DNA of 32,000 bases from Cryptosporangium sp. NPDC051539 (GTDB taxonomy: Bacteria; Actinomycetota; Actinomycetes; Mycobacteriales; Cryptosporangiaceae). The position numbers were made by a program, and so were the translations under genes. This document shows positions 1,053-25,388 of the stretch, in pieces. The stretch covers positions 723,140 to 755,139 of the forward strand of contig NZ_JBITDV010000002.1 in NCBI RefSeq assembly GCF_044454545.1. The letters run 5' to 3'. The number at the start of each line of letters is the position of its first letter. Position 1 is the first letter of the stretch. A model generated the notes under the pieces. The model did not search any database. It had not been told where the DNA came from and saw only the letters and a list, made by a program, of their open reading frames with translations.

Positions 1053-1053
1053 C

Positions 1054-2037: not shown

Positions 2038-2040
2038 CGG

Positions 2041-7849: not shown

Positions 7850-8928
7850 TGACCGACCTGCGGGACATGCTCGCGGACGCGCGGGCGCTGATCGAGTGCG
7901 AGTCGCCCTCCGGCGACCGGGCCGCGGTCGCCCGGTCGGCCGAGGTCGTCGCCGAGGTCGGTACCGGCATCCTGGGCGTCGCCCCGGAGCGGATCGACGG
8001 GGTCCATCTGCGGTGGCGGCTCGGCCCGGGCCCGTCGCGGGTGCTGCTGCTCGGTCACCACGACACGGTCTGGCCGCTCGGGACGCTCGACGACCGGCCG
8101 TACGCGGTGGACGGCGGGATCCTGCGTGGCCCGGGCTGTTTCGACATGAAGGTCGGGCTGGTGATGGCGTTGCACGCGGCTGCCGGGCTGGACGGCGTCA
8201 CGCTGCTGGTCACCGGCGACGAGGAGCTCGGGTCGCCGGGCTCGCGCGAGCTGATCGAGCGGGAGGCCAGGGCGGCGGAGGCGGCGCTGGTGCTGGAGGC
8301 GTCCGCCGACGGTGGCGCGCTGAAGTGCGAGCGGAAGGGCACCTCGCTCTACGACGTGCGGGTGATCGGCCGGGCCGCGCACGCCGGGCTGGAGCCCGAG
8401 CGCGGAGTGAACGCGACGATCGAGCTCGCCCGCCAGGTGCTGGCGGTCAGCGCGCTGGGCGGCGCGGGGACCACGGTGACGCCGACTGTGGCGCGGGCAG
8501 GCGTCACGACGAACACCGTGCCGGCCGAGGGATCGTTCGCGGTGGACGTCCGGGTGGAGACCCGGGCGGAACAGGAGCGGGTCGACCGGGCCATGCGCGC
8601 GCTGGGCGCGGTCGACCCGGGTGCGCGCGTCGAGGTGACCGGAGGTCGGAACCGGCCGCCGCTCGACGCGTCGGCGTCGGACTCGCTCTATGCTCTGGCC
8701 TGCCGGATCGCCGTCGGGCAGGGGCTGGCCGAGCCGGGGCGCGCCGCGGTCGGTGGCGCGTCCGACGGGAACTTCACCGCCGGGGTCGGCACGCCGACGC
8801 TCGACGGTCTCGGCGCGGTCGGTGGTGGCGCGCACGCGGCCGACGAGCACGTCGTGGTGGAGCACATCGGGCCACGGACCGCGCTGCTGCGCGCGCTGGT
8901 CTCGCACCTGGGGGCGGGGGGCTCGTGA
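7849..8928 (+). CDS. M20 family metallohydrolase (carboxypeptidase G2 / N-acyl-amino-acid deacylase-like)
   Basis: HHDTV, CFDMKVG and TGDEELGS metal-ligand/catalytic motifs, and a dimerisation-domain-sized insert. The ATG overlaps the upstream TGA by 1 nt (TGATG, 7847-7851). Confidence 0.85.
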   Translation: MTDLRDMLADARALIECESPSGDRAAVARSAEVVAEVGTGILGVAPERIDGVHLRWRLGPGPSRVLLLGHHDTVWPLGTLDDRPYAVDGGILRGPGCFDMKVGLVMALHAAAGLDGVTLLVTGDEELGSPGSRELIEREARAAEAALVLEASADGGALKCERKGTSLYDVRVIGRAAHAGLEPERGVNATIELARQVLAVSALGGAGTTVTPTVARAGVTTNTVPAEGSFAVDVRVETRAEQERVDRAMRALGAVDPGARVEVTGGRNRPPLDASASDSLYALACRIAVGQGLAEPGRAAVGGASDGNFTAGVGTPTLDGLGAVGGGAHAADEHVVVEHIGPRTALLRALVSHLGAGGS

Positions 8929-9713
8929 TCGGCGTCGACAACGCGGCGGAAGCCGCGGCGCTGAAGGCCGGAGTCGTCGTGCGTGAGTTGACCGACATGG
9001 ACCGGATCACCCGCGCGGTGGCGCTGCTCGCGGACATCTGGGGACGCTCGTCGAACCCGCCGGTGACCGCGGAGCTGCTGCGTGCCTTCTCGAAGGCGGG
9101 CAACTACGTGGCCGGTGCGTTCGAGGGAGAGCGGCTGGTCGGTGCGTGCGTGGCGTTCTTCCACGAGCCGGCGGGCAGCGCGCTGCACAGCCACATCGCC
9201 GGAGTGGCCGCCGACGCCGCCGGGCGCGGTGTCGGCTTCGCGCTGAAGTTGCACCAGCGGGCGTGGGCGCTGCAGCGCGACGTCGCCGACATCGTCTGGA
9301 CGTTCGACCCGCTGGTGGCCCGCAACGCCTACTTCAACCTGGGGAAGCTGGGGGCGCGGCCGGCCGAGTACCTGCCGAACTTCTACGGGCCGATGTCGGA
9401 CGCGTTCAACGGGAACGAGGAATCCGATCGGTTGCTGGTGCGGTGGAGGCTCCGGGAGTACGGGAACTCCACCGGCCCGGTGGCGGCCGGTGCGGTTCCG
9501 GTGCTGAGCGTCGGCGCCGACGCCGGTCCGGTGGCCGGCCGGCCCGAGGGCCCGATCGGCCTGGTCGCCGTGCCCCGGGACATCGGCGCGATGCGGGCGA
9601 GCGACCCCGCGCTGGCCCAGCGGTGGCGGGTCGCCGTGCGGGAGGCCCTCACCGGGGTCAGCATCGAAGGCTTCGACCCGTCCGGTTACTACGTGGTACG
9701 GAGGGAATCGTGA
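8925..9713 (+). CDS. GNAT-superfamily acyltransferase (COG3375-like), candidate amino-acid N-succinyl/acetyl-transferase
   Basis: Only the last 263 codons of the 605-aa ORF look protein-like. They include an HIAGVAADAAGRGVGFALKLHQRAW acyl-CoA-binding-type motif. GTG 8925 forms a GTGA overlap with the M20 stop. Confidence 0.65.
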   Translation: MIGVDNAAEAAALKAGVVVRELTDMDRITRAVALLADIWGRSSNPPVTAELLRAFSKAGNYVAGAFEGERLVGACVAFFHEPAGSALHSHIAGVAADAAGRGVGFALKLHQRAWALQRDVADIVWTFDPLVARNAYFNLGKLGARPAEYLPNFYGPMSDAFNGNEESDRLLVRWRLREYGNSTGPVAAGAVPVLSVGADAGPVAGRPEGPIGLVAVPRDIGAMRASDPALAQRWRVAVREALTGVSIEGFDPSGYYVVRRES

Positions 9714-10813
9714 AATTCGCCGGGATCGTGTTGCGACGGATCGTGATGCCGCTGGTGGCGCCGTTCCGGACGTCGTTCGGCGTCGAGACGACCCGCGACG
9801 TCCTGCTCGTGGGCGCGGTGGCCGAGGACGCCGAGGGCTGGGGCGAATGCGTGGCGATGACGAGCCCGCGCTACTCGTCCGAGTACGTCGACGCGGCGGC
9901 GGACGTGCTGCGCCGGTTCTTCGTGCCCGCGGTGCTGTCCGGCCCGGTCTCGGCGGTCTCGGTGGCGGAGTCGCTCGCGCCGTTCAAGGGGCACCAGATG
10001 GCCAGGGCGGCGCTCGAGACGGCGATCCTGGACGCCGAGCTGCGTGCGTCGGGCCGGTCGTTCGGGCGGGAGCTCGGAGCGGTGCGCTCGCGGGTGCCGT
10101 GCGGGGTCTCGGTCGGCATCATGGACAGCATCCCGCAGCTGCTCGACGCCGTCGGCGGCTACCTCGACGAGGGTTACGTCCGCATCAAGCTCAAGATCGA
10201 ACCGGGCTGGGACGTCGAGCCGGTCCGGGCCGTCCGGGAGCGCTACGGCGACGACGTGCTGCTCCAGGTGGACGCGAACACGGCCTACACGCTGGGCGAC
10301 GCCAGGCACCTGGCCCGGCTCGACCCGTTCGACCTGCTGCTGATCGAGCAGCCGCTCGACGAGGACGACCTCCTCGGGCACGCGGCGCTGGCCCGGCAGA
10401 TCCGCACCCCGGTGTGCCTGGACGAATCGATCACGTCGGCCAGGGCCGCCGCGGCCGCGATCCGCCTGGACGCCTGCCAGATCGTCAACATCAAGCCGGG
10501 ACGGGTCGGCGGCTACCTCGAAGCGCGCCGGATCCACGACGTCTGCGTGGCGCACGGCGTCCCGGTCTGGTGCGGCGGGATGCTGGAAACCGGGCTCGGC
10601 CGGGCCGCCAACGTGGCGCTCGCGGCGCTGCCCGGGTTCACGCTGCCCGGCGACACCTCGGGATCGGGGCGTTACTACGCCGCCGACATCACCGAGCCGT
10701 TCGTCCTCCGCGACGGTCACCTCGACGTGCCGGTCGGGCCCGGACTAGGGGTGACGCCGATTCCGGACCGGCTCGACGAGGTGACGGTTTCGACCGAGTG
10801 GCTCCCGGCGTGA
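9710..10813 (+). CDS. Enolase-superfamily N-succinyl/N-acylamino-acid racemase / o-succinylbenzoate synthase family protein
   Basis: The sequence VKFAGIVLRRIVMPLVAPFRTSFG...GYVRIKLKIEPGWDVEPVRAVRERYGDDVLLQVDANTAYTL...LLLIEQPL...VCLDES...IVNIKPGRVGG is nearly collinear with the Amycolatopsis N-acylamino-acid racemase as I remember it. KxK, D/E/D metal ligands and the second catalytic K are present. GTGA overlap at 9710. Confidence 0.9.
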   Translation: MKFAGIVLRRIVMPLVAPFRTSFGVETTRDVLLVGAVAEDAEGWGECVAMTSPRYSSEYVDAAADVLRRFFVPAVLSGPVSAVSVAESLAPFKGHQMARAALETAILDAELRASGRSFGRELGAVRSRVPCGVSVGIMDSIPQLLDAVGGYLDEGYVRIKLKIEPGWDVEPVRAVRERYGDDVLLQVDANTAYTLGDARHLARLDPFDLLLIEQPLDEDDLLGHAALARQIRTPVCLDESITSARAAAAAIRLDACQIVNIKPGRVGGYLEARRIHDVCVAHGVPVWCGGMLETGLGRAANVALAALPGFTLPGDTSGSGRYYAADITEPFVLRDGHLDVPVGPGLGVTPIPDRLDEVTVSTEWLPA

Positions 10814-10828
10814 CGTTACGGTGAGCCG

Positions 10829-12445
10829 GTGCGGGTGAGGCCTCGTGTGAACCTCGGGCGCGTCGTCGACGACCTCGGCGTGACGCTGCTCGAACACGCC
10901 CACGGGGACGTCGACCGGCCCGACGAGATCAGCGCGGTAGTTTTCCACGACCCGTCCGACCAGCCGGTGCTGCCCGCGCACGCGCTGGTGCTGGGCATCG
11001 GGGTGGACGACCCGGGTGCGCTGGCCGCGCTCCTCGTCGCGCTCGGGCAGCAGAACGCCGCCGCGCTCGTCGTCCGGGCGCCGGTGCCGCTCACCGACGA
11101 GGTGCGGGCCGCGGTCGACTCGGCCGGGGTCGCCGTGCTCGGGCTGCGCCGGGGCGCCACCTGGAACCACCTCAGCGACCTGCTGCGCTCGCTGCTCGCC
11201 CCGGGCGCCGATGCCGGACCGGCCGACGAGACGCTGCTCGGCGGGCTGCCCGCCGGTGACCTCTTCGCGGTCGCCAACGCGATCGCGTCGCTGCTGGACG
11301 CGCCGGTCACGATCGAGGACCGCAACTCCCGGGTGCTGGCCTTCTCCGGACGGCAGGACGAGGCCGATTCGTCCCGGGTCGACACGATCCTGGGCCGGCA
11401 GGTGCCCGAGAGCTACGCGCGAGTCCTGCACGAGCGGGGGGTGTTCCGGGAGCTGCTCCGCGGCGACCGGCCGATCTTCATCGAGCCGATCCCCGACCGG
11501 ATCAACGGTTTCCTCAAGCCGCGCGTCGCGATCCGGGTGCGCGCGGGCGACGAGGTGCTCGGGTCGATCTGGGCCGCGGTGCCCGGGCCGCTGAGCGACG
11601 AGCGCAGCGCGGCGTTGGGCGAGGCGGCCAACCTGGTCGCCCTGCACATGCTGCGGGTCCGGGCCGGTGCCGACGTGCAGCGGCGGATGCGGGCCGATCT
11701 GCTGAACGCTGCGCTGGGGGGCGGCGCGGGCGCACACGAGGCCCTCGAGCGGCTCGGCCTGTCGAGCCAGCCGCTGCTGGTGCTCGGGGTCGCGCTCGAC
11801 GAACGCGCCGATGCCGACAGTGCGAGCGTGATCCAGGACCGGCAGGGACTCAGCGACGCGTTCGCGCTGCACCTGCACGCGGTGCACCCGCGGGCCGTCG
11901 CCGCGGCGATCGGCGCGGTCACCTACGGCCTGCTGCCGCTGACCGGCACTCCCGACCGGGCGGTGCGGATCCTCCAGGGGTTCCAGGACCGGCTGGGTGG
12001 CCGGCTCCCGTCGATCGCCGCCGTGGGGCCGGTGGCGCGGGGGCTGTCGGACGTCGCCCGCAGCCGCACCAGCGTCGACCGGGTGCTGCGGGTGCTGCGC
12101 GACGGGCGTCCGCACCGGCGGATCGGCCGCTTCGACGAGCTCCAGGGCGAAGCACTGGTCTCCGAGCTGCGGGACCTCGCCGCGGCGCGCGGCGAGAAAC
12201 CGGCCGGGGCGCTGGCCCGCCTGGTGGAGTACGACGTCCTGCACCGCGGCAACCTCGTGCAGACGCTGCGCGCCTGGCTGGACGCTTTCGGCGACGCGGT
12301 GCTGGCCGCCGAGTCGATCGGCGTCCACCAGAACACGTTCCGGTACCGGTTGCGACGCGTTTCCGACGTCGGGCAGTGCGATCTCGGCGACCCCGACCAG
12401 CGGTTCGGACTCATGGTGCAGCTGCGGGCGCTCCGCCCGGAGTAG
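10829..12445 (+). CDS. PucR family transcriptional regulator
   Basis: N-terminal PucR-like sensor region and C-terminal HTH (GVHQNTFRYRLRRV). It starts 15 nt after the racemase stop. The start could instead be the in-frame GTG at 10847. Confidence 0.8.
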   Translation: MRVRPRVNLGRVVDDLGVTLLEHAHGDVDRPDEISAVVFHDPSDQPVLPAHALVLGIGVDDPGALAALLVALGQQNAAALVVRAPVPLTDEVRAAVDSAGVAVLGLRRGATWNHLSDLLRSLLAPGADAGPADETLLGGLPAGDLFAVANAIASLLDAPVTIEDRNSRVLAFSGRQDEADSSRVDTILGRQVPESYARVLHERGVFRELLRGDRPIFIEPIPDRINGFLKPRVAIRVRAGDEVLGSIWAAVPGPLSDERSAALGEAANLVALHMLRVRAGADVQRRMRADLLNAALGGGAGAHEALERLGLSSQPLLVLGVALDERADADSASVIQDRQGLSDAFALHLHAVHPRAVAAAIGAVTYGLLPLTGTPDRAVRILQGFQDRLGGRLPSIAAVGPVARGLSDVARSRTSVDRVLRVLRDGRPHRRIGRFDELQGEALVSELRDLAAARGEKPAGALARLVEYDVLHRGNLVQTLRAWLDAFGDAVLAAESIGVHQNTFRYRLRRVSDVGQCDLGDPDQRFGLMVQLRALRPE

Positions 12446-12472
12446 CCGGCTCCTCACCCTCGGCAGGACCGT

Positions 12473-12494
12473 CCATACGCCGACGATAGGCACC
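12473..12494 (+). promoter_or_regulatory. Candidate VanR box upstream of vanR. Tandem heptamers CCATACG and CGATAGG with 11-bp periodicity.
   Basis: CCATACGCCGACGATAGGCACC ends 19 nt before ATG 12514. It is 17/22 identical to nt 16904-16925 upstream of vanH. TACGTT (12501-12506) is a possible -10 element that would give a leaderless or very short-leader vanR mRNA. Confidence 0.4.
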
Positions 12495-12513
12495 TGCTCG
12501 TACGTTGGAGAGC

Positions 12514-13185
12514 ATGCGTGTACTGGTCGTCGAGGACGAGCCCTACATGGCCGAGGCGATCCGGGACGGGCTGCGGCTCGAAGCGATCGCCGCCGACCTC
12601 GCCGGCGACGGCGACACCGCGCTCGAGTTGCTGGGCATCAACACGTACGACATCGCCGTCCTCGACCGGGACGTCCCCGGGCCGTCCGGCGACGAGATCG
12701 CCGCCCGCATCGTCGCGTCCGGCAGTGGCATGCCGATCCTGATGCTCACCGCCGCCGACCGGCTGGACGACAAGACCTCCGGCTTCGAGCTCGGCGCCGA
12801 CGACTACCTCACCAAGCCGTTCGCGCTGCGGGAGCTCGTGCTCCGGCTCCGTGCGCTCGACCGCAGGCGCGCCCACAGCCGACCGCCGGTGCGCGAGATC
12901 GCCGGCCTGCGGCTGGACCCGTTCCGCCGCGAGGTCTATCGCGACGGCCGCTACGTCGCGCTCACCCGCAAGCAGTTCGCCGTGCTCGAGGTCCTCGTCG
13001 CGGCCGAGGGCGGGGTGATCAGCGCCGAGGAACTCCTGGAACGGGCCTGGGACGCCCACACCGACCCCTTCACCAACGCCGTCCGCATCACGGTCTCCGC
13101 CCTGCGCAAACGGCTCGGCGAGCCCGGGCTGATCGCCACCGTCCCCGGCGTCGGCTACCGCATCGAGGGTCAGCAGCGTGAGTAG
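12514..13185 (+). CDS. vanR: OmpR-family response regulator VanR
   Basis: MRVLVVEDEPYMAEAIRDGLRLEAIAADLAGDGDTALELL... closely resembles Streptomyces coelicolor VanR as I remember it. It has receiver plus winged-helix domains and lies next to vanS and vanHAX. The ORF track starts at TTG 12505, but ATG 12514 preceded by GGAGAG is preferred. Confidence 0.9.
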   Translation: MRVLVVEDEPYMAEAIRDGLRLEAIAADLAGDGDTALELLGINTYDIAVLDRDVPGPSGDEIAARIVASGSGMPILMLTAADRLDDKTSGFELGADDYLTKPFALRELVLRLRALDRRRAHSRPPVREIAGLRLDPFRREVYRDGRYVALTRKQFAVLEVLVAAEGGVISAEELLERAWDAHTDPFTNAVRITVSALRKRLGEPGLIATVPGVGYRIEGQQRE

Positions 13186-14305
13186 ACCGGCCGGGTTGAG
13201 CGTCCGGCTGCGGCTCACGCTCAGCTACGCCGGTTTCCTGATGCTGGCCGGCGTCCTGCTGCTCGCGGTCGTCTGGGTGTTCCTCCTGCGTTACGTCCCC
13301 GACCCGCCGCGCGACCTGCCGTTTCCCGGTATCCGCATCATCGGCCCCAGCCGTCACGACCTCCTGGTCGCGTTCGCTCCCCGGGCAGCCGAGATGCTGG
13401 CCTTCCTGCTGGTGTTCGGTCTGCTCGGAGGCTGGTTCCTGGCCGGCCGCATGCTCGCTCCGCTGTCCCGGATCACGGACGCGACGCACCGGGCCGCGAC
13501 CGGATCCTTGTCGCACCGGATCGCGCTGGAAGGACGGCACGACGAGTTCCGCGAACTCGCCGACAACTTCGACGCGATGCTCGCCCGGCTCGAGGCCCAC
13601 GTCGCCGGGCAGCAGCGGTTCGCGGCCAACGCGTCGCACGAGTTGCGTACTCCGCTGGCGATCACCCGGACGCTGCTCGACGTCGCCCGCGACGACCCCG
13701 GCCGCGACGACCACGAGCTCGACGACCGTCTCCGGGCCGTCAACGCCAGGGCGATCGAGCTCACCGAGGCGCTGCTCCTGCTCAGCCGGGCCGACCAGCG
13801 CTCGTTCGAACCCGAGCGGGTCGACCTGTCGCTGGTCGCGGAGGAAGCCACCGAGACGCTTCTTCCGCTGGCCGAGAAACACGGCGTCGCGATCGAGACC
13901 GGCGGGGACGTCACGCTCGCCGTCGGCTCGCACGCACTCCTCCTGCAGCTGACGACGAACCTCCTGCACAACGCGATCGTCCACAACCTGCCGGAGCACG
14001 GCACCGTGCGGGTCACCACCACGATCGGCCCGGACGCGGCCGTGCTCGCGGTCGAGAACACCGGCGAGACGCTCGATCCCGGGCTGATCCCGACGCTCAC
14101 CGAGCCGTTCCAGCGCGGCACCCAGCGCGTCCGCAGCGACCAGGCCGGTGTCGGGCTCGGCCTGGCGATCGTCCGGAGCATCACCCAGGCCCACGACGGA
14201 CTCCTCACGCTCACCCCGCGGACGGGCGGCGGACTCTGCGTCGAGGTGCGGCTGCCGGTCACCCCGCTGCACTGGCGCGACTACGTGATGGGGAAGTCGA
14301 AATAG
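13178..14305 (+). CDS. vanS: Sensor histidine kinase VanS
   Basis: Two N-terminal TM segments with a short loop, a HAMP domain, an H-box SHELRTPL, and N/G boxes (LLHNAIVHN, GVGLGLAIV). GTG 13178 overlaps the vanR stop by 8 nt. The N-terminus (GLSVRLRLTLSYAGFL) resembles actinomycete VanS. Confidence 0.88.
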   Translation: MSRPAGLSVRLRLTLSYAGFLMLAGVLLLAVVWVFLLRYVPDPPRDLPFPGIRIIGPSRHDLLVAFAPRAAEMLAFLLVFGLLGGWFLAGRMLAPLSRITDATHRAATGSLSHRIALEGRHDEFRELADNFDAMLARLEAHVAGQQRFAANASHELRTPLAITRTLLDVARDDPGRDDHELDDRLRAVNARAIELTEALLLLSRADQRSFEPERVDLSLVAEEATETLLPLAEKHGVAIETGGDVTLAVGSHALLLQLTTNLLHNAIVHNLPEHGTVRVTTTIGPDAAVLAVENTGETLDPGLIPTLTEPFQRGTQRVRSDQAGVGLGLAIVRSITQAHDGLLTLTPRTGGGLCVEVRLPVTPLHWRDYVMGKSK

Positions 14306-16857: not shown

Positions 16858-16903
16858 GCCCCCAGTCAAGGGTCCGCGGTGTTGTCAGCCCGTACGCAAT
16901 TCT

Positions 16904-16925
16904 CGATACGCGAGCGATAGGCGCC
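16904..16925 (-). promoter_or_regulatory. Candidate VanR box upstream of vanH. Tandem heptamers CGATACG and CGATAGG (as read on + strand) with 11-bp periodicity.
   Basis: CGATACGCGAGCGATAGGCGCC lies 47-68 nt upstream of the vanH ATG and is 17/22 identical to nt 12473-12494. A CGTACG palindrome lies on the gene-proximal side of both boxes (12499-12504 and 16891-16896). Confidence 0.4.
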
Positions 16926-16927
16926 CG

Positions 16928-17578: not shown

Positions 17579-17612
17579 GAGAGCTGAGCTATCGTTCACA
17601 ATAGTGCTGTGA
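17579..17612. promoter_or_regulatory. Candidate TetR operator region with two imperfect palindromes in the divergent intergenic region
   Basis: GAgAGCTgAGCTaTC (17579-17593) is a 15-bp palindrome with 2 arm mismatches. TTCACA-N7-TGTGA (17595-17612) has a right arm that overlaps GTG 17609 of the divergent gene. The region is relatively AT-rich. Confidence 0.3.
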
Positions 17613-19747
17613 GCAGCGATAACAAGATATTTTCCCGACTGACGACAGTGGACGAGGTCGAAGCGGTCGTCGGTCGTCCGCTGCCGGTGATCACGCTCAA
17701 GCAGATCAGCGCGCTCGATGAGGGGTGCCGCACGGTCCTCGCCCGGTGCCCGGTCGCCGCGTTCGGCCACCGGGACGCCGGCGGCACCAGCCGGACCACG
17801 TTCGTCGGCGGCCGGCCGGGCTTCGCCCGCGTCCACTCACCGACGCGGATCTCGTTCCCGTGGCCCGGGCCCGGTGAGCCGCACGGCGGCGTCTCGCTGT
17901 TCTTCCTTCTGCCGGGCGTCGGAGAGGTACTGCGGATCAACGGCGTGGCGGCCGGCCGCGACCGCGGTGAGACGACCGTCGACGTCGTGGAGGCGTACGT
18001 GCACTGCGCCCAGGCGATTCTCCGGTCCCGCCTGTGGCAGCCGCCCGCCCCGGCCGGGCCGGGCGCGGACGTCCCCGGCGACGGCCCGCTGCGCGCTCCC
18101 GGGGTAGCCGATTTCCTCGCCTCCGCGCCGTTCCTCGCACTGTCGACCTGGGACGCGTCCGGCGGGAGCGACACGAGCCCGCGCGGCGACCGGCAGACCG
18201 TGGCACGGATCCTGGACGGCCGCACGCTCGTCCTGCCGGACCGCAAGGGCAACAAGCGCGCCGACACGCTCCACAACCTGCTGCGGGACGACCGGCTGTC
18301 GTTCGCCGCGCTCGTCCCCGGGCGCAGCGGTGTCCTGCACGTCCGCGGACGCGGCGCGATCACCGTCGATCCGGCGCTGCTGGACGCGATGGCACTGCAC
18401 GGGAAGCCCCCGCACGCGGCCCTGCTCATCGACGTCGAGCACGCCGAGGTGGCGGCCAACGACGCGGTGGCGCGCTCGCGGCTGTGGACGCCCGGCGCGC
18501 ACGTCGCGCGCGGCGCGGTGCCCGACCTGATGGCGCTGGGCGGCGAGCATCTCGCGGCCACGCTGGCCGAGACCAGGGGCGGCCCGTCCGCGTTCCTGCT
18601 CCGGGTCGTCGGGTCGATCCCCGGCCTGACCCGGTTGCTGCGGCTGGCGATGAACAGCGCCTACCGCTCCGGGCTGCACAAAGAGGGCTACGACGACGTC
18701 CGGACCGGCCGGCCGCGTGCGACCGGCGCGGCCACCGAACAGCACGCGGCCCGGGAGGTGCGTATCGCCGAGATCCGGCGGGAGACTCCCAGCACGGTCA
18801 CGCTCGTCCTCGAGGACGCGGACCCGTTCGACTTCCGGCCCGGCCAGTTCTTCACGCTCGTGGCCGACATCGACGGCCGCCCGGTGCGACGGGCCTACTC
18901 GGCCGCGTCCGGGCCCGGGTCGTCCCGGCTGGAGCTCACGGTCAAGCACGTCGAGGGCGGCCGGTTCTCCGGGCACGTCCACCGGAACCTCCGCGTGGGC
19001 GACCGGCTCGGGGTGCGCGGCCCGTCCGGGTCGTTCCACACCGGAGACCGGGCTCCGGACGAGCTCGTGCTGATCGCCGCGGGCAGCGGCGTCACGCCGA
19101 TGATGAGCATGATCCGCGCGGCGCTGTCCGCCTCGCCGGACGCGGGCCGGATCGCGCTGCTCTACAGCAGCCGCAGCGCAGAGGAGATCATCTTCGGCGG
19201 CGAGCTGACCCACCTGGCGGCGAACCACCCCGGCCGCCTGTCGGTGACCCACGTCCTCACCGGCGCCGAGGGCCGGCTCACCGCGGACGGCGTCCGCCGG
19301 TGGGTCACCGGCCTGTCCCCGTCCGCCGACGCCCACTACTACGTCTGCGGTCCCGACGGTCTGGGCGACGCCGTGCGCGGCGTCCTGAACGGGCTGGACG
19401 TCCCGGGCGAGCGGGTGCACAGCGAGCGTTACACCAGCGGGGCGGGCGCGACGGCCGCGACCACCGTGCCGCAGACGATGATCGTCGAGGACCACGGGCA
19501 GCCGGTCGGCACGGTGATCGTCGAACCGGGTCAGACGCTGCTCGACGCCGGCCTCGCGGCGGGACTGGACCTGCCGTTCTCCTGCACGGTCGGGAACTGC
19601 GGCGACTGCCTGGTGCGGCTGCGCAGCGGAACCGTCGCCCAGCACGAGCCGAACTGCCGCACCCCCCGGCAGCAGGCCGACGGCTACGTGCTGACCTGCG
19701 TGGGCTCCCCGCTGTCCGACGTCACGCTCGACGTCGGCGAGCCCTGA
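17609..19747 (+). CDS. Multidomain flavoprotein oxidoreductase with two PNPOx-like FMN-binding split-barrel domains, an FNR-type FAD/NAD(P)H reductase and a C-terminal plant-type 2Fe-2S ferredoxin
   Basis: Residues ~10-140 and ~170-300 resemble pyridoxamine-5'-phosphate-oxidase-family domains. RRAYSAAS (RxYS FAD motif), LIAAGSGVTPMMSM (NAD-binding) and CTVGNCGDCLVRL (2Fe-2S Cys cluster) follow. The start is uncertain (GTG 17609 or in-frame GTG 17648). Confidence 0.8.
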   Translation: MSSDNKIFSRLTTVDEVEAVVGRPLPVITLKQISALDEGCRTVLARCPVAAFGHRDAGGTSRTTFVGGRPGFARVHSPTRISFPWPGPGEPHGGVSLFFLLPGVGEVLRINGVAAGRDRGETTVDVVEAYVHCAQAILRSRLWQPPAPAGPGADVPGDGPLRAPGVADFLASAPFLALSTWDASGGSDTSPRGDRQTVARILDGRTLVLPDRKGNKRADTLHNLLRDDRLSFAALVPGRSGVLHVRGRGAITVDPALLDAMALHGKPPHAALLIDVEHAEVAANDAVARSRLWTPGAHVARGAVPDLMALGGEHLAATLAETRGGPSAFLLRVVGSIPGLTRLLRLAMNSAYRSGLHKEGYDDVRTGRPRATGAATEQHAAREVRIAEIRRETPSTVTLVLEDADPFDFRPGQFFTLVADIDGRPVRRAYSAASGPGSSRLELTVKHVEGGRFSGHVHRNLRVGDRLGVRGPSGSFHTGDRAPDELVLIAAGSGVTPMMSMIRAALSASPDAGRIALLYSSRSAEEIIFGGELTHLAANHPGRLSVTHVLTGAEGRLTADGVRRWVTGLSPSADAHYYVCGPDGLGDAVRGVLNGLDVPGERVHSERYTSGAGATAATTVPQTMIVEDHGQPVGTVIVEPGQTLLDAGLAAGLDLPFSCTVGNCGDCLVRLRSGTVAQHEPNCRTPRQQADGYVLTCVGSPLSDVTLDVGEP

Positions 19748-20784
19748 GCCGGGAAACAGACGCTGATCCGCAGGCCCCCGTCCGGCCGCGGCTGAGCGAG
19801 CAACCGGGCCTGCTGCGCCCGGGCGATCGCCGCGACGATGGCCAGGCCGAGCCCGTGCCCGGCGGTCTGGTCGGTGCGATCGGTGCCGAGCCGCTGGAAC
19901 GGCTGGAACAGCCGGTCGATCTCCTCGGCCGGCACCGGGGCACCGGTGTTGCTCACGGTCAGGCACCCGCCGGGCGAGACCGCGATCTCGACGCTCCCGC
20001 CCGGGACGTTGTGACGCACCGCGTTGTCGAGCAGGTTCGTGACGAGGCTGGCGGTCAGGCGGTCGTCGCCGGTCACCGGCGCCGGGGCGAGCGCGGTGTG
20101 GACCCGGATGCTTCCGGTGTCGCGTCCGGAGATCGCCTTCCGGGTGACGTCGGCCAGATCGAACGGACGCCGGTGCTCGATGCCCTGCTGTCCTCCGGCG
20201 AGCGTGAGCAGCGCGTCCAGCAGCTGTTCCTGCTGTCGGCCGAGGGCCAGCACTTCCTCGCAGGTGGACCGGAGCGCGCCGGCGGACGCGTCCGGGTCGG
20301 CCAGCGTGAGCTGGAGGAGGGTCCGCTGAACGGTCAGCGGGGTGCGGAGCTCGTGCGAGGCGTTGGCGACGAACTGCCGCTGCGCGGTGAACGCGTCGTC
20401 GAGCCGGCGCAGCAGGCCGTCGAACGTCGCCGCGAGTTCGCTGAACTCGCGGTAGCCGGCCGGGATCCGTACGCGGTGGTGGAGGTCGCTCGCGGACATC
20501 GTGCGCGCGGCGGCGGTGAGCGCCCGCAGGGGGCGCAGCGCCCGCCCGGCGAGCATCCGGCCGACCGCGAGCGAGACCGCGGCCAGCACGACCAGCGCGA
20601 CGGCGGAGTACCGCAGCACGTCGGCGAGGTTGTCGCCGGTGCCGGCCCGCGCCGGTTCGCCCGGGCCCGGCACGGTGTGGCCGCCGACGTAGAGCGGCAG
20701 GTCGGCCAGGACCAGCAACAGCACACCGCCGGCGAACGTGAACCCGGCGTGGACGAGCGCGAGCCGGGTCCGCAGGCTTCTCAC
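19684..20784 (-). CDS. Sensor histidine kinase, VanS/CutS-like paralogue with a short extracytoplasmic loop
   Basis: Two TM segments separated by ~26 aa, a HAMP domain, an H-box SHELRTPL, and N/G boxes (LLDNAVRHN, GHGLGLAIV). GTG 20784 forms a GTGA overlap with the response-regulator stop. The 3' end overlaps the convergent flavoprotein gene by 64 nt. Confidence 0.85.
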   Translation of the reverse strand: MRSLRTRLALVHAGFTFAGGVLLLVLADLPLYVGGHTVPGPGEPARAGTGDNLADVLRYSAVALVVLAAVSLAVGRMLAGRALRPLRALTAAARTMSASDLHHRVRIPAGYREFSELAATFDGLLRRLDDAFTAQRQFVANASHELRTPLTVQRTLLQLTLADPDASAGALRSTCEEVLALGRQQEQLLDALLTLAGGQQGIEHRRPFDLADVTRKAISGRDTGSIRVHTALAPAPVTGDDRLTASLVTNLLDNAVRHNVPGGSVEIAVSPGGCLTVSNTGAPVPAEEIDRLFQPFQRLGTDRTDQTAGHGLGLAIVAAIARAQQARLLAQPRPDGGLRISVCFPAQGSPTSSVTSDSGEPTQVST

Positions 20785-21443
20785 GACCCACCGATCCGGT
20801 AACCGCCCTCGCGCACGGTGTGGATGGCCGGTGGCCGCCCGAGCTTCGCGCGCAGCCGTCCGATCGTGGTCTTCACCGTGGTCGTGAACGGGTCGGCGGC
20901 CTCGTCCCAGACCCGTTCGAGCAGTTCCTCGGCCGGCACCACCCGGCCCCCGGCGGCCAGCAGGTACTCCAGGACCGCGAATTCCTTCGGGCTGAGGTCG
21001 AGCCGCCGTCCGGCGCGCGAGGCCACCCGCCGGCCGGGGTCGAGCGACAGGTCGCCGTCGTCCAGCACCGGTGGCAGCGCGGACGCGGTGCGGCGCCCGA
21101 GAGCCCGGACCCGGGCCACCAGCTCGGCGAAGTCGAACGGCTTGGGCAGGTAGTCGTCGGCGCCGAGACCGAGGCCCTCGACGCGGTCGCGGACCTTGGC
21201 CGCCGCAGTCAGCATCAGGACCCGGGCGGCCGATCCGCCGGCCACGATCCGCCGGCACACCTCGTCGCCGTGCATCCCGGGCAGGTCACGGTCGAGGACG
21301 ACGACGTCGTAGCGGGTATCGGCCAGCCGTTCGAGCGCGGCCGTCCCGTCGAGCGCGGCGTCCACCGCCATCGCCTCCCGGCGCAGACCGGCCGTGATCA
21401 GCGTGTTCAACCTGCGGTGATCCTCCACCACCAGCACCCTCAT
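20781..21443 (-). CDS. OmpR-family response regulator
   Basis: MRVLVVEDHRRL...VVVLDRDLPGMHGDEV...DDYLPKPFDFAELVARV receiver domain plus a winged-helix C-terminus (220 aa). ATG at 21443. The longer ORF-track extension runs antisense to the ABC gene and is rejected. Confidence 0.9.
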   Translation of the reverse strand: MRVLVVEDHRRLNTLITAGLRREAMAVDAALDGTAALERLADTRYDVVVLDRDLPGMHGDEVCRRIVAGGSAARVLMLTAAAKVRDRVEGLGLGADDYLPKPFDFAELVARVRALGRRTASALPPVLDDGDLSLDPGRRVASRAGRRLDLSPKEFAVLEYLLAAGGRVVPAEELLERVWDEAADPFTTTVKTTIGRLRAKLGRPPAIHTVREGGYRIGGS

Positions 21444-21456
21444 GGGTCCACGATGC

Positions 21457-21506
21457 CAGCCGGGTGGTGACAGCCGGGTCTCAACGCCGCGCACCGGGCT
21501 GTCACC
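21457..21506. promoter_or_regulatory. Triple repeat CAGCC(G/C)GGT (two direct copies, one inverted) forming a 13-bp-arm inverted repeat in the divergent RR/ABC promoter region
   Basis: CAGCCGGGT occurs at 21457-21465 and 21471-21479. GGTGACAGCCGGG (21466-21478) pairs with CCGGGCTGTCACC (21494-21506), 12 of 13 positions complementary, with a 15-nt spacer. Confidence 0.45.
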
Positions 21507-21530
21507 GGCGTCCCGGTAGAACTCCGGGCC

Positions 21531-22433
21531 ATGATCGAAGTCGAAGCACTGCGGAAGCGGTACGGGGCCACGACGGCGCTGGACGGGATGACGTTCACGG
21601 CCGCTCCCGGCCGGGTCACCGGGTTCGTCGGGCCGAACGGGGCCGGGAAGTCCACCACGATGCGGATCGTCCTCGGCCTGCACACCGCCGACGCCGGGGT
21701 CGCGCTCGTCGGTGGCCGGCCCTACCGGTCGCTGACCCGGCCACTGCGGCACCTCGGCGCACTCCTGGACGCGTCCGCGCTGCACCCGGCCCGGTCCGGA
21801 CGCGACCACCTGCGGTGGCTGGCGCACTCGCAGGGCCTGCGCAGCGCCCGGGTCGACGAGGTCGTGACGCTGGTGGGCCTGGGACCGGCCGCGCGCAGGC
21901 GGGCCGGCGGGTACTCGCTGGGCATGCGGCAGCGCCTCGGCATCGCGGCCGCGCTGCTGGGCGATCCGCCGGCGATCATGCTCGACGAGCCGTTCAACGG
22001 GATGGATCCCGACGGCATCATCTGGATGCGCGGTTTCCTGCGTTCGCTGGCCGCGCAGGGGCGGGCCGTGCTGGTGTCGAGCCACCTGATGACCGAACTG
22101 CAGGGCACGGCCGATCACGTGGTCGTCGTCGGCCGGGGCCGGGTTCTCGCGGACGGCAGTGTGGCCGGCCTGATCGCGACCGCGTCCGGAGACCGGGTAC
22201 GGGTGCGGACCAGCGCGCCGGAACCGGCGGCCGCGGCGCTCACCGCCGCGGGGGCGCAGGTGTCGGGCGAGGACGTGCTCTCCGTGCGGGGCCTCGCCGC
22301 CGAACGGGTCGCCGAGGTGCTCACCGCGAATCGGCTGCCGTTCTCCGAACTCGCGCCGCACCGGGCCACGCTCGAGGAGGTGTACCTGGAGCTGACCCGG
22401 GACGCCGTGGAGTACGGCGCGGTGGCGCCGTGA
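21531..22433 (+). CDS. ABC transporter ATP-binding protein (ABC-2/DrrA-BcrA-like exporter ATPase)
   Basis: Walker A GPNGAGKST, signature YSLGMRQRLGIA, Walker B IMLDEPFNGMD, H-loop SSH. Confidence 0.9.
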   Translation: MIEVEALRKRYGATTALDGMTFTAAPGRVTGFVGPNGAGKSTTMRIVLGLHTADAGVALVGGRPYRSLTRPLRHLGALLDASALHPARSGRDHLRWLAHSQGLRSARVDEVVTLVGLGPAARRRAGGYSLGMRQRLGIAAALLGDPPAIMLDEPFNGMDPDGIIWMRGFLRSLAAQGRAVLVSSHLMTELQGTADHVVVVGRGRVLADGSVAGLIATASGDRVRVRTSAPEPAAAALTAAGAQVSGEDVLSVRGLAAERVAEVLTANRLPFSELAPHRATLEEVYLELTRDAVEYGAVAP

Positions 22434-23809
22434 TCCTGCGGTCGGAGTGGACCAAGTTCCGGTCGGTCCGGGGATGGGTGATCGGCACCGCGGTCGCGGC
22501 GCTGCTGATCCTGGTGTTCCCGGTGACCGGGCTCGGCGGCGCCGGGTCGGAGAAGCCGCGGCCGATCCCGCTCGGGCCGGGCGGGGAACCGGTCGTCGAC
22601 GCGTACTACTTCGTGCCTCGCCCGCTGGCCGGCGACGGGCGGATCACGGTGGAGGTGACCGCACTCGAGAGCCGCGCGCCGTGGGCGAAGGCCGGTCTGC
22701 TCGTCCGCGCGGGGACGCGGTACGCCGCGATTCTGCGCACCGCCGGGCACGGCGTGCGGATGCAGTACGACTACACCGGCGACGTCGCCGGACCCGACCC
22801 GGCGGCCCGGTGGCTGCGGCTCACCCGGTCCGGCGACACGGTCATCGGGGAGGCGTCGGCCGACGGCACCCACTGGGATCGGGTCGGTGCGGTGCGACTG
22901 CCCGGCCCGCTGCGGGCCGGGCTGTTCGTGGCCTGCCCGCAGCACGTCCACGGTGTGGGGACGGAGCCGGACGCGGCCACCGCGACGTTCGCCGGTGCCG
23001 GATCCGGGCCCTGGACCGGTGGGCAGCACGGAGCAGGCACGGCCACGTTCGCCGGGTACCCGCTCGGTGTCTCGGGCGGCTTCAGCGCCTCGGCCGGCCG
23101 GGTCACGGTGACCGGCGCCGGAGACCTCGCCCCGGCCACCCGTACGGACGTCGTCCCGGCGGCGTCGATAAACGATCTGCTCTTCGGGACGCTGCCCGCG
23201 CTGATCGTGGTCGTGGTCATCGCGACGCTGATGGCCACGACCGAGTACCGGTACGGGCTGATCCGCAGCACGCTGAGCGCGACCACGCGGCGCGGGCGGG
23301 TGTTGCTGGCCCGGGCCGCCGTGGCCGGTGGAGTCACGTTCGTGGCCGGTCTGGTGGGCGCGGCGCTCGCGGTGGCCATCTGGCCCGGCCTGGTGCGTGG
23401 CCTCGGCGTCTTCCTCTTCCCGGCGTCGTCGGGCGCCGTCGTGCGGGTCGCGGCCGGGACGGCCGCCGTGCTCGCGCTCGCGGCCGTCTTCGCGCTCGGC
23501 GTCGGGACGCTGCTGCGACGCTCTGCCGCCGCGGTGACGACGGTCGTGACGCTGACCGTGCTGCCGTACCTGCTGGCGCTGGTGCCGTTCACGCCGTTGC
23601 CGATGGCCGAGTGGCTGACCAGGGTCACGCCGGCCGCCGCGCTGGCCGTGCAGCAGACCGTCGTCCGGTCTCCGCAGGTCGACGGGCTCTACAACCCGGC
23701 CAACGGCTACTACCCGCTGTCGCCGTGGGCGGGTCTGGCCGTGCTGGGCGGCTACGCCGGGCTCGCGCTCGCGCTGGCCGCCGTCGCGCAGCGCCGGAGG
23801 GACGTGTGA
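22430..23809 (+). CDS. ABC-2 family permease with a ~200-aa ConA/LamG-like (DUF1349-type) domain inserted in the first extracytoplasmic loop
   Basis: N-terminal SEWTKFRS motif and TM1. Residues ~40-245 are non-membrane (WAKAGLLVRAG...WLRLTRSGDTVIGEASADGTHWDRVGAV...LRAGLFVA, a beta-sandwich lectin/glucanase-fold pattern). Then come TTEYRYGLIRSTLSATTRR and five further hydrophobic segments. GTGA overlap at 22430. Confidence 0.75.
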   Translation: MILRSEWTKFRSVRGWVIGTAVAALLILVFPVTGLGGAGSEKPRPIPLGPGGEPVVDAYYFVPRPLAGDGRITVEVTALESRAPWAKAGLLVRAGTRYAAILRTAGHGVRMQYDYTGDVAGPDPAARWLRLTRSGDTVIGEASADGTHWDRVGAVRLPGPLRAGLFVACPQHVHGVGTEPDAATATFAGAGSGPWTGGQHGAGTATFAGYPLGVSGGFSASAGRVTVTGAGDLAPATRTDVVPAASINDLLFGTLPALIVVVVIATLMATTEYRYGLIRSTLSATTRRGRVLLARAAVAGGVTFVAGLVGAALAVAIWPGLVRGLGVFLFPASSGAVVRVAAGTAAVLALAAVFALGVGTLLRRSAAAVTTVVTLTVLPYLLALVPFTPLPMAEWLTRVTPAAALAVQQTVVRSPQVDGLYNPANGYYPLSPWAGLAVLGGYAGLALALAAVAQRRRDV

Positions 23810-24366
23810 GGGACGCCCTGCGCGCGGAGTGGACGAAGCTGTGCACGACGTGGGCGCCGGCGGGGCTGCTCCTGGCCGCGGTGGTCGCCACGGTGGCGCT
23901 GGGCGTCGCCCTCCACGGCACCGAGGGGTTCTACCTGGGACAGGCTCCGATCGCAGTACTCGGCGTGCTGACGGTCAGCGGCGAGTACGGCACGGCGCTG
24001 ATCGGCGTCACGCTGGCGGCCATGCCGGACCGGCGGCTCCCGCTGGCGGCCAAGGCGCTGACGCTCACCGGGCCGGTGGCAGTGGCCGGTCTGGTCGCCC
24101 GCGGTCCGGTCGTCTACCTCGTCCTGATCGCCTGGCTCAGCGTCGGGGTCGCCGCGATCGTCCGCGACTCCGGCGTCGCGATCGGCGTCGTTCTCGGGCT
24201 GCTGTACCTGCCCCCGATCGTCAGCGCGACGGTGGCCGACCCGCACGTCCACCGTCTGATCGACCGGACCGCGCCGATGACGGGCGGCCTCGGCGCACTC
24301 GCCGCCTGGGCCGCCGCGGCCCTGCTCGTCGGCACGCTCGTCCTCGGCCGCCGGGAGGTCTGCTAG
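23806..24366 (+). CDS. Short ABC-2 family permease paralogue (186 aa)
   Basis: AEWTKL motif, SGEYGTALIGVTLAAMPDRR motif and hydrophobic segments. It is ~30 aa shorter in the central region than the upstream permease core and has a minimal first loop. GTG 23806 overlaps the upstream TGA (GTGTGA). Confidence 0.6.
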   Translation: MRDALRAEWTKLCTTWAPAGLLLAAVVATVALGVALHGTEGFYLGQAPIAVLGVLTVSGEYGTALIGVTLAAMPDRRLPLAAKALTLTGPVAVAGLVARGPVVYLVLIAWLSVGVAAIVRDSGVAIGVVLGLLYLPPIVSATVADPHVHRLIDRTAPMTGGLGALAAWAAAALLVGTLVLGRREVC

Positions 24367-25388
24367 CCGGTCGTCGGGGAGGGCGGCCGGGGCCGGGCGG
24401 CGGTAGCGGTCCGGAGCAACTGTCCGACCAGTCCCCGCAGCTCTCGCAACGCGGCCGGGTCGTACCGTCGCCCGGCGGTGTCGACCACCTCGGTCACCCC
24501 GGCGAGCAGCTCCGCGGCCGTGACCGCGTCTCCGAGCTGAGCCAGCGCCTGTGCGGCGAGCCAGTCGCAGTACGGCCCCGGCGCTCCCGCCGTCCGCAGC
24601 TGCTCGACGAGTACCAGGCACACCTCGTCCATGCCGCCGGCCAGCACCAGCCGGGCCAGGAAGTCGGTGCCCTCGATCCACTGCGGTGTGCCCGGGAACT
24701 CCTCGCGCAGCACCTCGAACGTGTCCACGGCGTCCTGGTTGCGCCCCGCTCCGACCAGGCTGCGTCCGAGATCGAGCAGCGTGGTGGCCAGCACGCCGCG
24801 GTCGGCGGCCGGCCCGGCGGACAACAGCTCGTCCAGAGCCCGGTGGGCCAGGCCGACGTTGCGCTCGGACTTGGCCCGGCGGAGCTCCGGCGACGCGTAC
24901 CCCTCGTGGGTGAACCGGATCGCGGCGCGCGGCGCGGCCGCGAGCCGGGAGGACCCCACCAGCCGCTCGTGCACCCGCCCCTGCCAGGCCACCGTCCCGG
25001 CGCGGTAGAGGCGCCCCTCGGCGTGCGTGTACGGCGACTCGTCGTGCGCGTTGTCGATCTCCACCCGCAGCACGTCGGCGTCGGTGGCCCGCAACAGCGC
25101 GCGCAGGGCGTCCGGGTCGCCGGTGTAGCGCTGATCGGCGTCGATCGCGAGCACCCAGCCGGCCGTGCAGCCGCGGTGCGCGTCGTTGCGGGCCGCGGCG
25201 AAGTCGTCGTCCCAGAGGCCCCGGCTGACGCTCGCGCCGAGCTGTTCGGCCAGCACCGGCGTGCCGTCGACCGAGCCGGTGTCGTGCACGTGCACGGTGT
25301 CGGCCACCCCGTCGAGCGACGCCAGACAGCCGGGCAGCGTCTCCTTCTCGTTCCGCACGATCAGGACGGCCGTCAGCAAACCGGTCAT
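24363..25388 (-). CDS. Family 2 glycosyltransferase with a C-terminal TPR-like helical domain
   Basis: The N-terminus LTAVLIVRNEKETLPGCLASL...VHVHDTGSVDGT...AIDADQ is GT2 with a DxD-type motif. The C-terminal ~170 aa is Leu/Ala-rich and helical. The stop overlaps the convergent permease stop within the palindrome GCTAGC. Confidence 0.8.
   Translation of the reverse strand: MTGLLTAVLIVRNEKETLPGCLASLDGVADTVHVHDTGSVDGTPVLAEQLGASVSRGLWDDDFAAARNDAHRGCTAGWVLAIDADQRYTGDPDALRALLRATDADVLRVEIDNAHDESPYTHAEGRLYRAGTVAWQGRVHERLVGSSRLAAAPRAAIRFTHEGYASPELRRAKSERNVGLAHRALDELLSAGPAADRGVLATTLLDLGRSLVGAGRNQDAVDTFEVLREEFPGTPQWIEGTDFLARLVLAGGMDEVCLVLVEQLRTAGAPGPYCDWLAAQALAQLGDAVTAAELLAGVTEVVDTAGRRYDPAALRELRGLVGQLLRTATAARPRPPSPTTG

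Follow-up and report, generated by a model that had tools for sequence, protein, structure and literature searches.

A VanRS-like two-component system paired with a type V ABC transporter that carries a predicted lectin-fold domain in actinomycetes

The locus described here raises two linked questions: what a two-component system (TCS) of the VanRS kind does when it is paired with an ATP-binding cassette (ABC) transporter, and which of the two partners senses the stimulus. It lies in a stretch of 32,000 nucleotides (nt) of Cryptosporangium sp. NPDC051539 (contig NZ_JBITDV010000002.1, positions 723,140 to 755,139), here termed the window, and comprises five genes: those for a histidine kinase (HK2) and a response regulator (RR2) and, divergent from them, those for an ATPase, a large permease (P1) with a predicted external lectin-fold domain and a short permease (P2). 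An earlier note on this DNA had read the unit as Bce-like, after the BceRS-BceAB systems of Firmicutes. The reading that we favour, and hold to be about evenly balanced between right and wrong, is that the unit is a self-contained, inducible envelope-defence module, in which the TCS switches a type V exporter that carries the lectin-fold domain.

The G+C content of the window is about 72%, and genes were therefore called from third-position GC (GC3 frame plot) and then translated. RR2 and HK2 are encoded on the minus strand and the three ABC genes on the plus strand (21531-24366; table 1). Genes overlap within both operons: the GTG start codon of HK2 overlaps the stop codon of RR2 (GTGA), and the ATPase/P1 (GTGA) and P1/P2 junctions are each overlaps of 4 nt. 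Frame plot and translation confirm the coordinates of the earlier note, which had placed the kinase divergent, across 87 nt, from an overlap-coupled three-gene ABC operon, and a public, independent gene call on identical DNA agrees for P1, P2 and the downstream genes.

The earlier note had asked whether the pairing of TCS and transporter is conserved across genomes, and it is. Homologous loci were collected by a pattern scan with a P1 alignment, one genome being used per species, and at least 558 relatives are encoded among the 600 matched stretches. Comparisons between loci cover the best 80 related loci (81 counting the window), and were made by tblastn with the window proteins and by clustering of all flanking open reading frames (ORFs). 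A TCS adjoins the transporter in 74 of the 81 loci, spread over at least 18 named genera plus metagenome-assembled genomes; it is of the VanR-like type in 63, with response regulator (RR) orthologues 57-88% identical. Type A, found at 47 loci (three of them cut at a contig end and one co-directional), has the RR gene followed by the histidine kinase (HK) gene, divergent from the ATPase gene, and its products are 66-88% (RR) and 45-67% (HK) identical to those of the window. It occurs in Dactylosporangium, Actinoplanes, Streptomyces, Actinomadura, Microbispora, Actinoallomurus, Kribbella, Umezawaea, Actinophytocola and others. Type B (16 loci) is a Streptomyces variant in which HK precedes RR, with about 59% (RR) and 40% (HK) identity. 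At the 11 loci of type C (L016, L036, L045, L053, L056, L059, L062, L063, L071, L074 and L080) the same position, just upstream of the ATPase gene, is taken by a NarL/HisKA_3-type kinase; their identity to the L016 copy is 55-64%. The VanR-like system is absent there, and the one transporter family has taken on a TCS of a third, unrelated kind. The last seven loci lack a TCS within 5 kb. Copies of the module occur in Streptomyces scabiei and S. collinus, among other species, and types A (L025) and C (L062) are found together in the genome of Actinomadura sp. OS1-43. The sequence clusters of P1 track TCS type and not taxonomy, Streptomyces having both A and B, and the five genes are therefore inherited, or travel, as a unit; beyond them, clustering of the flanking ORFs of the related loci found no conserved neighbours. 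Database names for the relatives are generic throughout ('ABC transporter permease subunit', 'DUF1349 domain-containing protein'). A protein search from a Streptomyces orthologue likewise returned generic names only, with no S. coelicolor entry among the best 120.

Conservation extends to the region between RR2 and the ATPase gene, and this conserved symmetric control region is a new element reported here. Promoters and operators were called by phylogenetic footprinting, using conservation and position, in 35 type A intergenic regions, which align without gaps over about 85 nt, from -10 to -10, with the consensus nACgATGCCAG-N6-GGTnnCAgCCnGGTCgCAGCcGCtGcGACCGGGCtGgaACC-N11-GTACAAC-N8-CATG. The candidate operator (21466-21506, 41 bp) consists of four heptads at a spacing of 11/12/11 bp, two direct and two inverted. 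Its dyad centre falls at 21486, the centre of each -10 element is 33.5 bp away, and the plus-strand -10 element stands at a fixed distance from both operator and ATG in the 35 relatives. OmpR-family regulators bind tandem repeats with a spacing of about 11 bp, at or near the -35 position. Since the candidate operator lies exactly midway between the two -10 elements, one regulator, RR2, probably switches on both operons, and a conserved element in this place, between the divergent genes, speaks for dependence of the ABC promoter on the RR. The position of the ATG, 6-8 nt after each -10 element, predicts that the RR2-HK2 and ABC transcripts are leaderless or near-leaderless.

The two-heptad pattern has one match in the window, where 0.15 is expected by chance, and no further copies that would point to a regulon or to cross-regulation with the van genes were found in these 32 kb. 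The exact pattern occurs at the regulatory position in 39 of the 80 related loci, usually with its inverted copy, and the 80 loci hold no match outside those regulatory regions. At L010, where the TCS is co-directional with the ABC genes, the motif is upstream of the RR gene. Type B Streptomyces loci (L035, L040, L051, L054, L067 and others) carry a conserved palindrome of their own, CCTAACAGCGAGATGACAG-N14-CTGTAAC-N7-GTCACAG, about 120 nt upstream of the ATPase gene and ahead of an ATG that looks leaderless; the half-site of this palindrome, TGACAG, is similar to GGTGACAG in the window. In other type A relatives (L009, L013, L014, L017, L018, L020 and others, at about 6900-7030 in locus coordinates, and L001, at 6920-7060) leaderless mini-ORFs flank the operator. 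Those on the ATPase side have 11 codons and end in ATGA on the ATPase start (for example MNPFRTVSSLR and MRQHRTGSSPR, then stop), and those on the RR side have 12-22 codons and end on the RR start or shortly ahead of it (for example MTPRPGGRFGRPARTTTGGEWG, then stop). The clade of the window is without both mini-ORFs, and RR2 and the ATPase take the leaderless ATGs themselves.

The part of the transporter that sets it apart is P1. Its AlphaFold (AF2) model, based on the 81-sequence alignment, has a predicted local distance difference test (pLDDT) score of 88.9 and a predicted template modelling (pTM) score of 0.85, and runs from an N-terminal amphipathic helix (EWTKFR) through the first transmembrane helix (TM1) and an all-beta domain (about residues 54-235) to five more TM helices. 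By this model P1 is a 6-TM half of a type V (ABC-2) exporter that opens with an amphipathic helix and has its ATPase on a separate chain. Foldseek matches the membrane part to NosY, PmtD and ABCG25, all of them type V, ABC-2 exporters, and the 50 matches listed for P1 include no chain of the FtsX or MacB type; a profile search of P1 against PDB sequences gave no match, and only the comparison of folds is informative.

For the beta domain, the top Foldseek matches in the PDB are the DUF1349 structures 3mep and 3o12, followed by the C-terminal ConA-like domain of GH43 xylosidases and by LamG/SPRY domains. The window P1 alone scores 23.2 bits on the Pfam model of DUF1349 (PF07081), below its cut-off of 32.4 bits; full-length homologues of P1 carry PF07081 together with the ABC2_membrane families PF12679, PF12698 and PF12730. 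An exhaustive search with the extracytoplasmic domain (ECD) of P1 retrieved 4,467 cluster representatives at E <=1e-3, and the best matches are proteins of 1,000-3,900 amino acids (aa) with 3-8 tandem DUF1349 copies (61-130 bits, 32-41% identity). From these three lines (PF07081 in the homologues, the top structural matches and the retrieval of multi-DUF1349 proteins) the domain is predicted to belong to DUF1349, in the ConA-like lectin/glucanase superfamily. The seven multi-DUF1349 proteins that were scanned (in a set including P0241-P0252) also have galactose-oxidase E-set, glucose/sorbosone dehydrogenase, LamG, PKD and fn3 domains; they look like a carbohydrate-handling context and, by domain content, secreted.

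Model and fold matches bear out the claim of the earlier note that an ABC-2 permease here has a large extracytoplasmic beta-sandwich. That the permease 'has acquired' this domain, as a local event, does not hold, since the architecture is common to thousands of Actinomycetota proteins; a recent local insertion of the ECD is ruled out by the same family members. Mean pairwise identity of the ECD is 62% (minimum 47%) against 67% for the transmembrane domain (TMD), and many ECD residues are invariant across orders, the invariant positions including H107, R110, Q112, D118, R127, R130, D145 and W149.

The other two transporter subunits fit the same picture. The ATPase has intact Walker A, signature, Walker B and H-loop motifs, its orthologues are 63-83% identical in 75 of the 80 loci, and the solved sequences closest to it are the second nucleotide-binding domain (NBD2) of ABCA1/A4/A7, NosF and Rv1218c. 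P1 and P2 have in common an N-terminal motif (EWTKL in P2) and an SGEY..TL motif. Compared with 12 aligned relatives, P2 has three in-frame deletions relative to full-length versions of 252-264 aa, and lacks the Cys-containing first external loop, about 44 aa at TM3-TM4 and about 19 aa before the last helix. Lengths are graded within the clade, from 186 aa (the window, the shortest) to 198, 209 and 231 aa. A mis-called fragment was considered for P2, and is ruled out by the independent gene call and by these graded in-frame reductions in close relatives.

An ATPase with two distinct ABC-2 permeases beside an OmpR-type TCS is also the arrangement of LanFEG with LanRK. The window differs in that its ATPase, whose best NCBIfam model is the lantibiotic-protection ATPase TIGR03740, scores 164 bits against a cut-off of 309.75 bits; P1 has no NCBIfam match and P2 no Pfam or NCBIfam match. 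No lantibiotic genes were found nearby in the window or its relatives, and we know of no large external domain like that of P1 in LanE or LanG.

Three loci have lost the ATPase gene. In L002 (7840-9410 in locus coordinates), L011 (7870-9428) and L042 (7760-9467), hosted by two Dactylosporangium species and one Actinomadura, an intact P1 gene has been joined directly to the operator, -10 element and putative leaderless ATG; P2 is also absent in L002 and L011. The losses in Dactylosporangium are independent, since both P1 sequences are closer to that of L001 than to each other. A crude ratio of non-synonymous to synonymous substitution (dN/dS) of 0.34-0.58 for these P1 genes, against 0.37-0.41 in complete modules, is unreliable at this GC3 bias and carries little weight here; it gives no clear sign of relaxation.

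The TCS itself is a relative of the vancomycin-resistance regulators. RR2 is 55% identical to VanR of the window (12505-13185; 1e-65) and HK2 37% identical to VanS (13178-14305; 2e-39), and the H-box strings in which the earlier note had seen paralogy between HK2 and VanS are present. The best NCBIfam models are VanS-O for HK2 (154 bits, cut-off 720) and VanR-O for RR2 (230 bits, cut-off 505). Because these scores are far under the cut-offs, and the true VanS and VanR of the window reach 522 and 452 bits on the same models, the pair is best classed as a VanRS paralogue and not a VanRS, in line with the 'second VanS/VanR-like' system of the earlier note. With actinomycete VanRS (VanR-O/VanS-O; window copy at 12505-14305) it shares family, domain order and a short external loop followed by HAMP, and it differs in adjoining an ABC transporter, not vanHAX, vanY, vanZ or vanJ. 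A survey of vanRS-like pairs lists vanY, vanZ, pdx operons and beta-lactamases as partners and mentions pairs 'without any other close' van-like gene; a pairing with ABC genes is not described there (PMC8698665).

At the N-terminus of HK2, TM1 (about residues 10-33) is followed by a loop of about 25 aa (GGHTVPGPGEPARAGTGDNLADVLR), TM2 and HAMP; the loop of about 26 aa given in the earlier note is thus right. It measures 25-50 aa in the relatives, with no recognisable external domain and HAMP next. The term 'intramembrane-type kinase', also from the earlier note, suits the short loop without a recognisable external domain, but in view of HAMP and the VanS-like architecture this loop does not show that the kinase lacks a sensor. 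VanS of S. coelicolor, with which HK2 shares the input architecture of TM helices, short external loop and HAMP, is cited as a direct-binding sensor (PMC4513084).

Taken as an envelope-defence module, the unit would work as follows. With its own TM-loop-TM-HAMP input, HK2 would sense a signal that arises outside the cytoplasm or in the membrane and, as is usual for its family, phosphorylate RR2. Phospho-RR2 would occupy the two outward-facing tandem heptad pairs of the candidate operator and, as the conservation of that element supports, activate its own operon (positive autoregulation) together with the ABC operon. An (ATPase)2-P1-P2 exporter, its type V class supported by the fold and its export direction presumed, would then act on a compound present on the outer side of the membrane. 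Positioned over this side, the DUF1349 domain of P1 would most likely capture a glycosylated or lipid-anchored envelope-active compound, or a complex of this compound and a conserved target in the envelope. The carbohydrate-handling context of DUF1349 suggests that the ligand bears a sugar; it might be an antibiotic that is itself glycosylated or, in a lipid-linked wall precursor, the sugar-pyrophosphate head in complex with an antibiotic. The latter case would follow the logic of target protection proposed for BceAB (PMC9169098, bioRxiv 10.1101/835702). Once the compound is expelled or released the stimulus would fall, a negative feedback like that of LnrJK-LnrLMN (PMC7472640). The inducer is presumed to be an antibiotic.

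Several points count against such a module. A generic sigma-70 and terminator scan of 19500-24600 calls nothing, so that the -10 elements are assigned by conservation and position only. The literature searched on DUF1349 with ABC or two-component systems, on VanRS-like pairs and on intramembrane sensing in Streptomyces does not describe the module. The external loop is the least conserved segment of the kinase (44-51% identity within clades, 26% between), and a kinase reading the transporter's own ligand would be expected to keep it. The strong conservation of the ECD is also in keeping with an endogenous ligand, itself conserved, rather than with a variety of antibiotics. Finally, a P1 that is kept under the operator without an ATPase is odd for a pure transport subunit.

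The variable loop and the P1 genes without an ATPase are what a Bce-like mechanism would explain. The lectin-fold domain of P1 would then recognise the compound, or its complex with the target, HK2 would not be able to detect the stimulus itself, and transporter cycling would be relayed to HK2 inside a transporter-kinase complex (flux sensing) while the transporter also protects the target. An ECD conserved across all clades beside a loop that is the most variable part of the kinase is the pattern expected for recognition in P1, and the three independent lineages described above keep an intact P1 under the operator, beside the TCS, after loss of the ATPase. The Bce precedent itself speaks for it (PMC4513084, PMC9169098): in BceRS-BceAB of Firmicutes, directed at bacitracin and antimicrobial peptides, an OmpR-type TCS is coupled to an ABC permease whose one large domain is extracellular, the kinase, with its two TM helices, exposes little sequence to the outside, and the pairing is conserved and co-segregating. 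The co-segregation of P1 clusters with TCS type is the kind of co-evolution reported for Bce modules (PMC9169098), and conserved pairing is thus a feature that the window's family has as well.

In other respects the resemblance ends. BceB is a single, type VII-like permease of 10 TM helices with two FtsX-fold bundles and a Sabre/Porter domain between TM7 and TM8 (PMC9169098), whereas the window has two type V (ABC-2) permeases, and the 6-TM model of P1 places a DUF1349 jelly roll between TM1 and TM2. BceS is without any extracellular ligand-binding domain (PMC9169098), unlike HK2 with its HAMP domain and 25-50-aa loop. Fold, number of TM helices, domain position and domain fold all differ, and the kinase has HAMP; as a statement of membership, the Bce-like label of the earlier note is not sustained. 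Against a mechanistic likeness, VanS, of the same input architecture, senses directly (PMC4513084). The P1 family, moreover, combines with three TCS arrangements, including an unrelated NarL-type kinase, and the TCS is for this reason better read as a swappable regulator, which is easier to accommodate than an obligate complex.

The best architectural match for the transporter operon is LnrLMN of the LnrJK-LnrLMN system of Bacillus subtilis (linearmycin/polyene), in which one ATPase and two ABC-2 permeases stand beside the controlling TCS (PMC7472640). LnrJK is of the NarL/HisKA_3 type, as in the type C relatives, whereas the TCS of the window is of the OmpR type, and the Lnr permeases are not described with a large extracellular lectin-fold domain such as that of P1. 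This closest ABC-2 analogue also argues against co-sensing: LnrLMN is the regulated output of LnrJK, is not required for sensing and damps signalling (PMC7472640). A Bce-like mechanism is, on this evidence, possible but rather improbable. We likewise doubt, somewhat more strongly, that the lectin-fold domain of P1 is the real sensor for the VanS-type kinase, which would be a second, independently evolved case of transporter-mediated sensing, on a type V and not a type VII scaffold and widespread in Actinomycetota; P1 as co-sensor could act stand-alone in the three loci without an ATPase.

The conserved ECD can also be taken in another direction, towards a role in the cell's own envelope. The transporter would then move or present an endogenous glycolipid, lipid-linked glycan or wall glycopolymer, whose sugar part the lectin-fold domain binds, by ABCA-like lipid extrusion or a NosDFY-like mechanical hand-over, and the TCS would be tuned to the state of the envelope and not to an antibiotic. 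ABCA proteins have a large external domain between TM1 and TM2, which is the arrangement of P1. The ATPase is closest to the ABCA lipid exporters and NosF and the TMD of P1 to NosY, PmtD and ABCG, the tandem DUF1349 proteins look secreted and have carbohydrate-handling domains, and an ECD with many residues invariant across orders suggests one conserved ligand. The external domains of ABCA proteins and NosD, however, are not DUF1349 jelly rolls, and those systems are not TCS-coupled modules of the window's kind. What makes an endogenous role, though plausible, unlikely in our view is the way in which the module is distributed and controlled. Patchy occurrence, often in several copies (as in Actinomadura sp. 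OS1-43), and P1 clusters that cut across taxonomy are characteristic of accessory or defence units and not of core envelope machinery; P2 is shrinking, and some lineages have lost the ATPase; and on/off control as tight as that of a VanRS sister is more usual in inducible resistance.

The position of the module invites one further explanation. The earlier note had put it 3 kb from vanHAX and proposed a cell-envelope antibiotic island; vanH ends at 16869, about 2.8 kb from HK2, and the distance thus agrees. As a second arm of a glycopeptide-resistance island, the module would be tied to vanRS-vanHAX, sense or export glycopeptides and cross-talk with VanRS, and the identities of RR2 to the neighbouring VanR and of HK2 to VanS, together with this proximity, speak for it; a lectin-fold domain could, speculatively, bind a glycosylated peptide. 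The related loci speak otherwise: within 8 kb, none of the 80 has vanH, vanA, vanX or any other neighbour from the window, such as its TetR, flavoprotein and GT2 genes. The operator heptads occur once only in the window, and the upstream regions of vanH and vanR carry other repeats, of the TATCG type. Three unrelated genes also separate or flank the module, namely TetR and a PNPOx-FNR-ferredoxin fusion on the van side and GT2 on the other. The island is not borne out, the vanHAX neighbourhood is specific to this genome, the position of the module beside the vancomycin-resistance genes looks coincidental, and a joint glycopeptide-resistance function is very improbable.

Upstream of vanH (16870-16927) there is a direct repeat, CTATCGctcgcgTATCG, and upstream of vanR (12446-12504) are CGATAG, the vanH-side motif inverted, and CGTACG. 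These are possible VanR boxes; they are unlike the GGTGACA heptads, and there is therefore no sign in the window of an operator shared with VanR. Between TetR and HK2, a plus-strand gene (17609-19747) encodes a 712-aa fusion of PNPOx-like, FNR-type FAD/NAD reductase and 2Fe-2S ferredoxin domains, and its 3' end overlaps the convergent 3' end of HK2 by 64 nt (19684-19747). On the other side, a GT2-TPR gene on the minus strand (24363-25388) overlaps the P2 stop codon by 4 nt. Upstream of vanRS, positions 3-12445 hold a putative cluster for uptake and breakdown of peptides, possibly peptidoglycan peptides, whose genes are included in table 1.

Table 1. Positions in the window of the five genes, the elements of their control region and the genes upstream of vanRS.
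Feature	Position	Strand	Description
HK2 histidine kinase	19684-20784	-	366 aa; TM1, external loop of about 25 aa, TM2, HAMP, HisKA (H-box FVANASHELRTPL), HATPase_c
RR2 OmpR-family response regulator	20781-21443	-	220 aa; Response_reg + Trans_reg_C (Pfam)
RR2/ATPase intergenic region	21444-21530		exactly 87 nt
ABC ATPase	21531-22433	+	300 aa; Pfam ABC_tran
Large permease P1	22430-23809	+	459 aa; AF2 model + Foldseek
P1 extracytoplasmic DUF1349 jelly-roll domain (ECD; predicted)	22562-23164 (about residues 45-245)		between TM1 and TM2
Short permease P2	23806-24366	+	186 aa; second ABC-2 half
RR2 start codon	21443-21441	-	putative leaderless ATG
-10-like hexamer CATCGT	21455-21450	-	6 nt upstream of RR2 ATG; ACGATGCCAG nearly invariant in 35 relatives
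Heptad 1 GGTGACA	21466-21472	+	candidate RR operator
Heptad 2 GGTCTCA	21477-21483	+	candidate RR operator
Heptad 3 GGTGCGC	21495-21489	-	candidate RR operator
Heptad 4 GGTGACA	21506-21500	-	candidate RR operator
-10-like hexamer TAGAAC	21517-21522	+	8 nt upstream of ATPase ATG; TACAAC in most relatives
ATPase start codon	21531	+	putative leaderless ATG
dpp/opp-type ABC importer	3-4634
S9 peptidase fused to beta-lactamase-fold domain	4631-7849		1,072 aa
M20 peptidase	7849-8928
Mandelate-racemase/MLE-type enzyme	within 9146-10813
PucR-type regulator	10829-12445

In Firmicutes, one of the main ways to inducible resistance against envelope-active antibiotics is a detoxification module that joins a sensor to an ABC transporter, and actinomycetes make most of these antibiotics; we know of no equivalent module that has been characterised in actinomycetes. 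The general logic of a TCS coupled to an ABC detoxification transporter is already well known, whereas the architecture found here, in which a symmetric, putatively leaderless divergent promoter lies between a sister of VanRS and a type V exporter with a predicted external DUF1349 domain, is widespread and was not found described in the literature searched. The module represents a VanRS sister that has a transporter as its partner in place of cell-wall remodelling genes. Its compact 87-nt symmetric promoter, with a candidate four-heptad operator and predicted leaderless starts, and the confident model of P1 provide an experimental handle, including a reporter for the inducer. DUF1349, a domain of unknown function, would gain a first physiological context, and at least two origins of sensing through a transporter, on ABC folds that are unrelated, would follow if the permease is the sensor.

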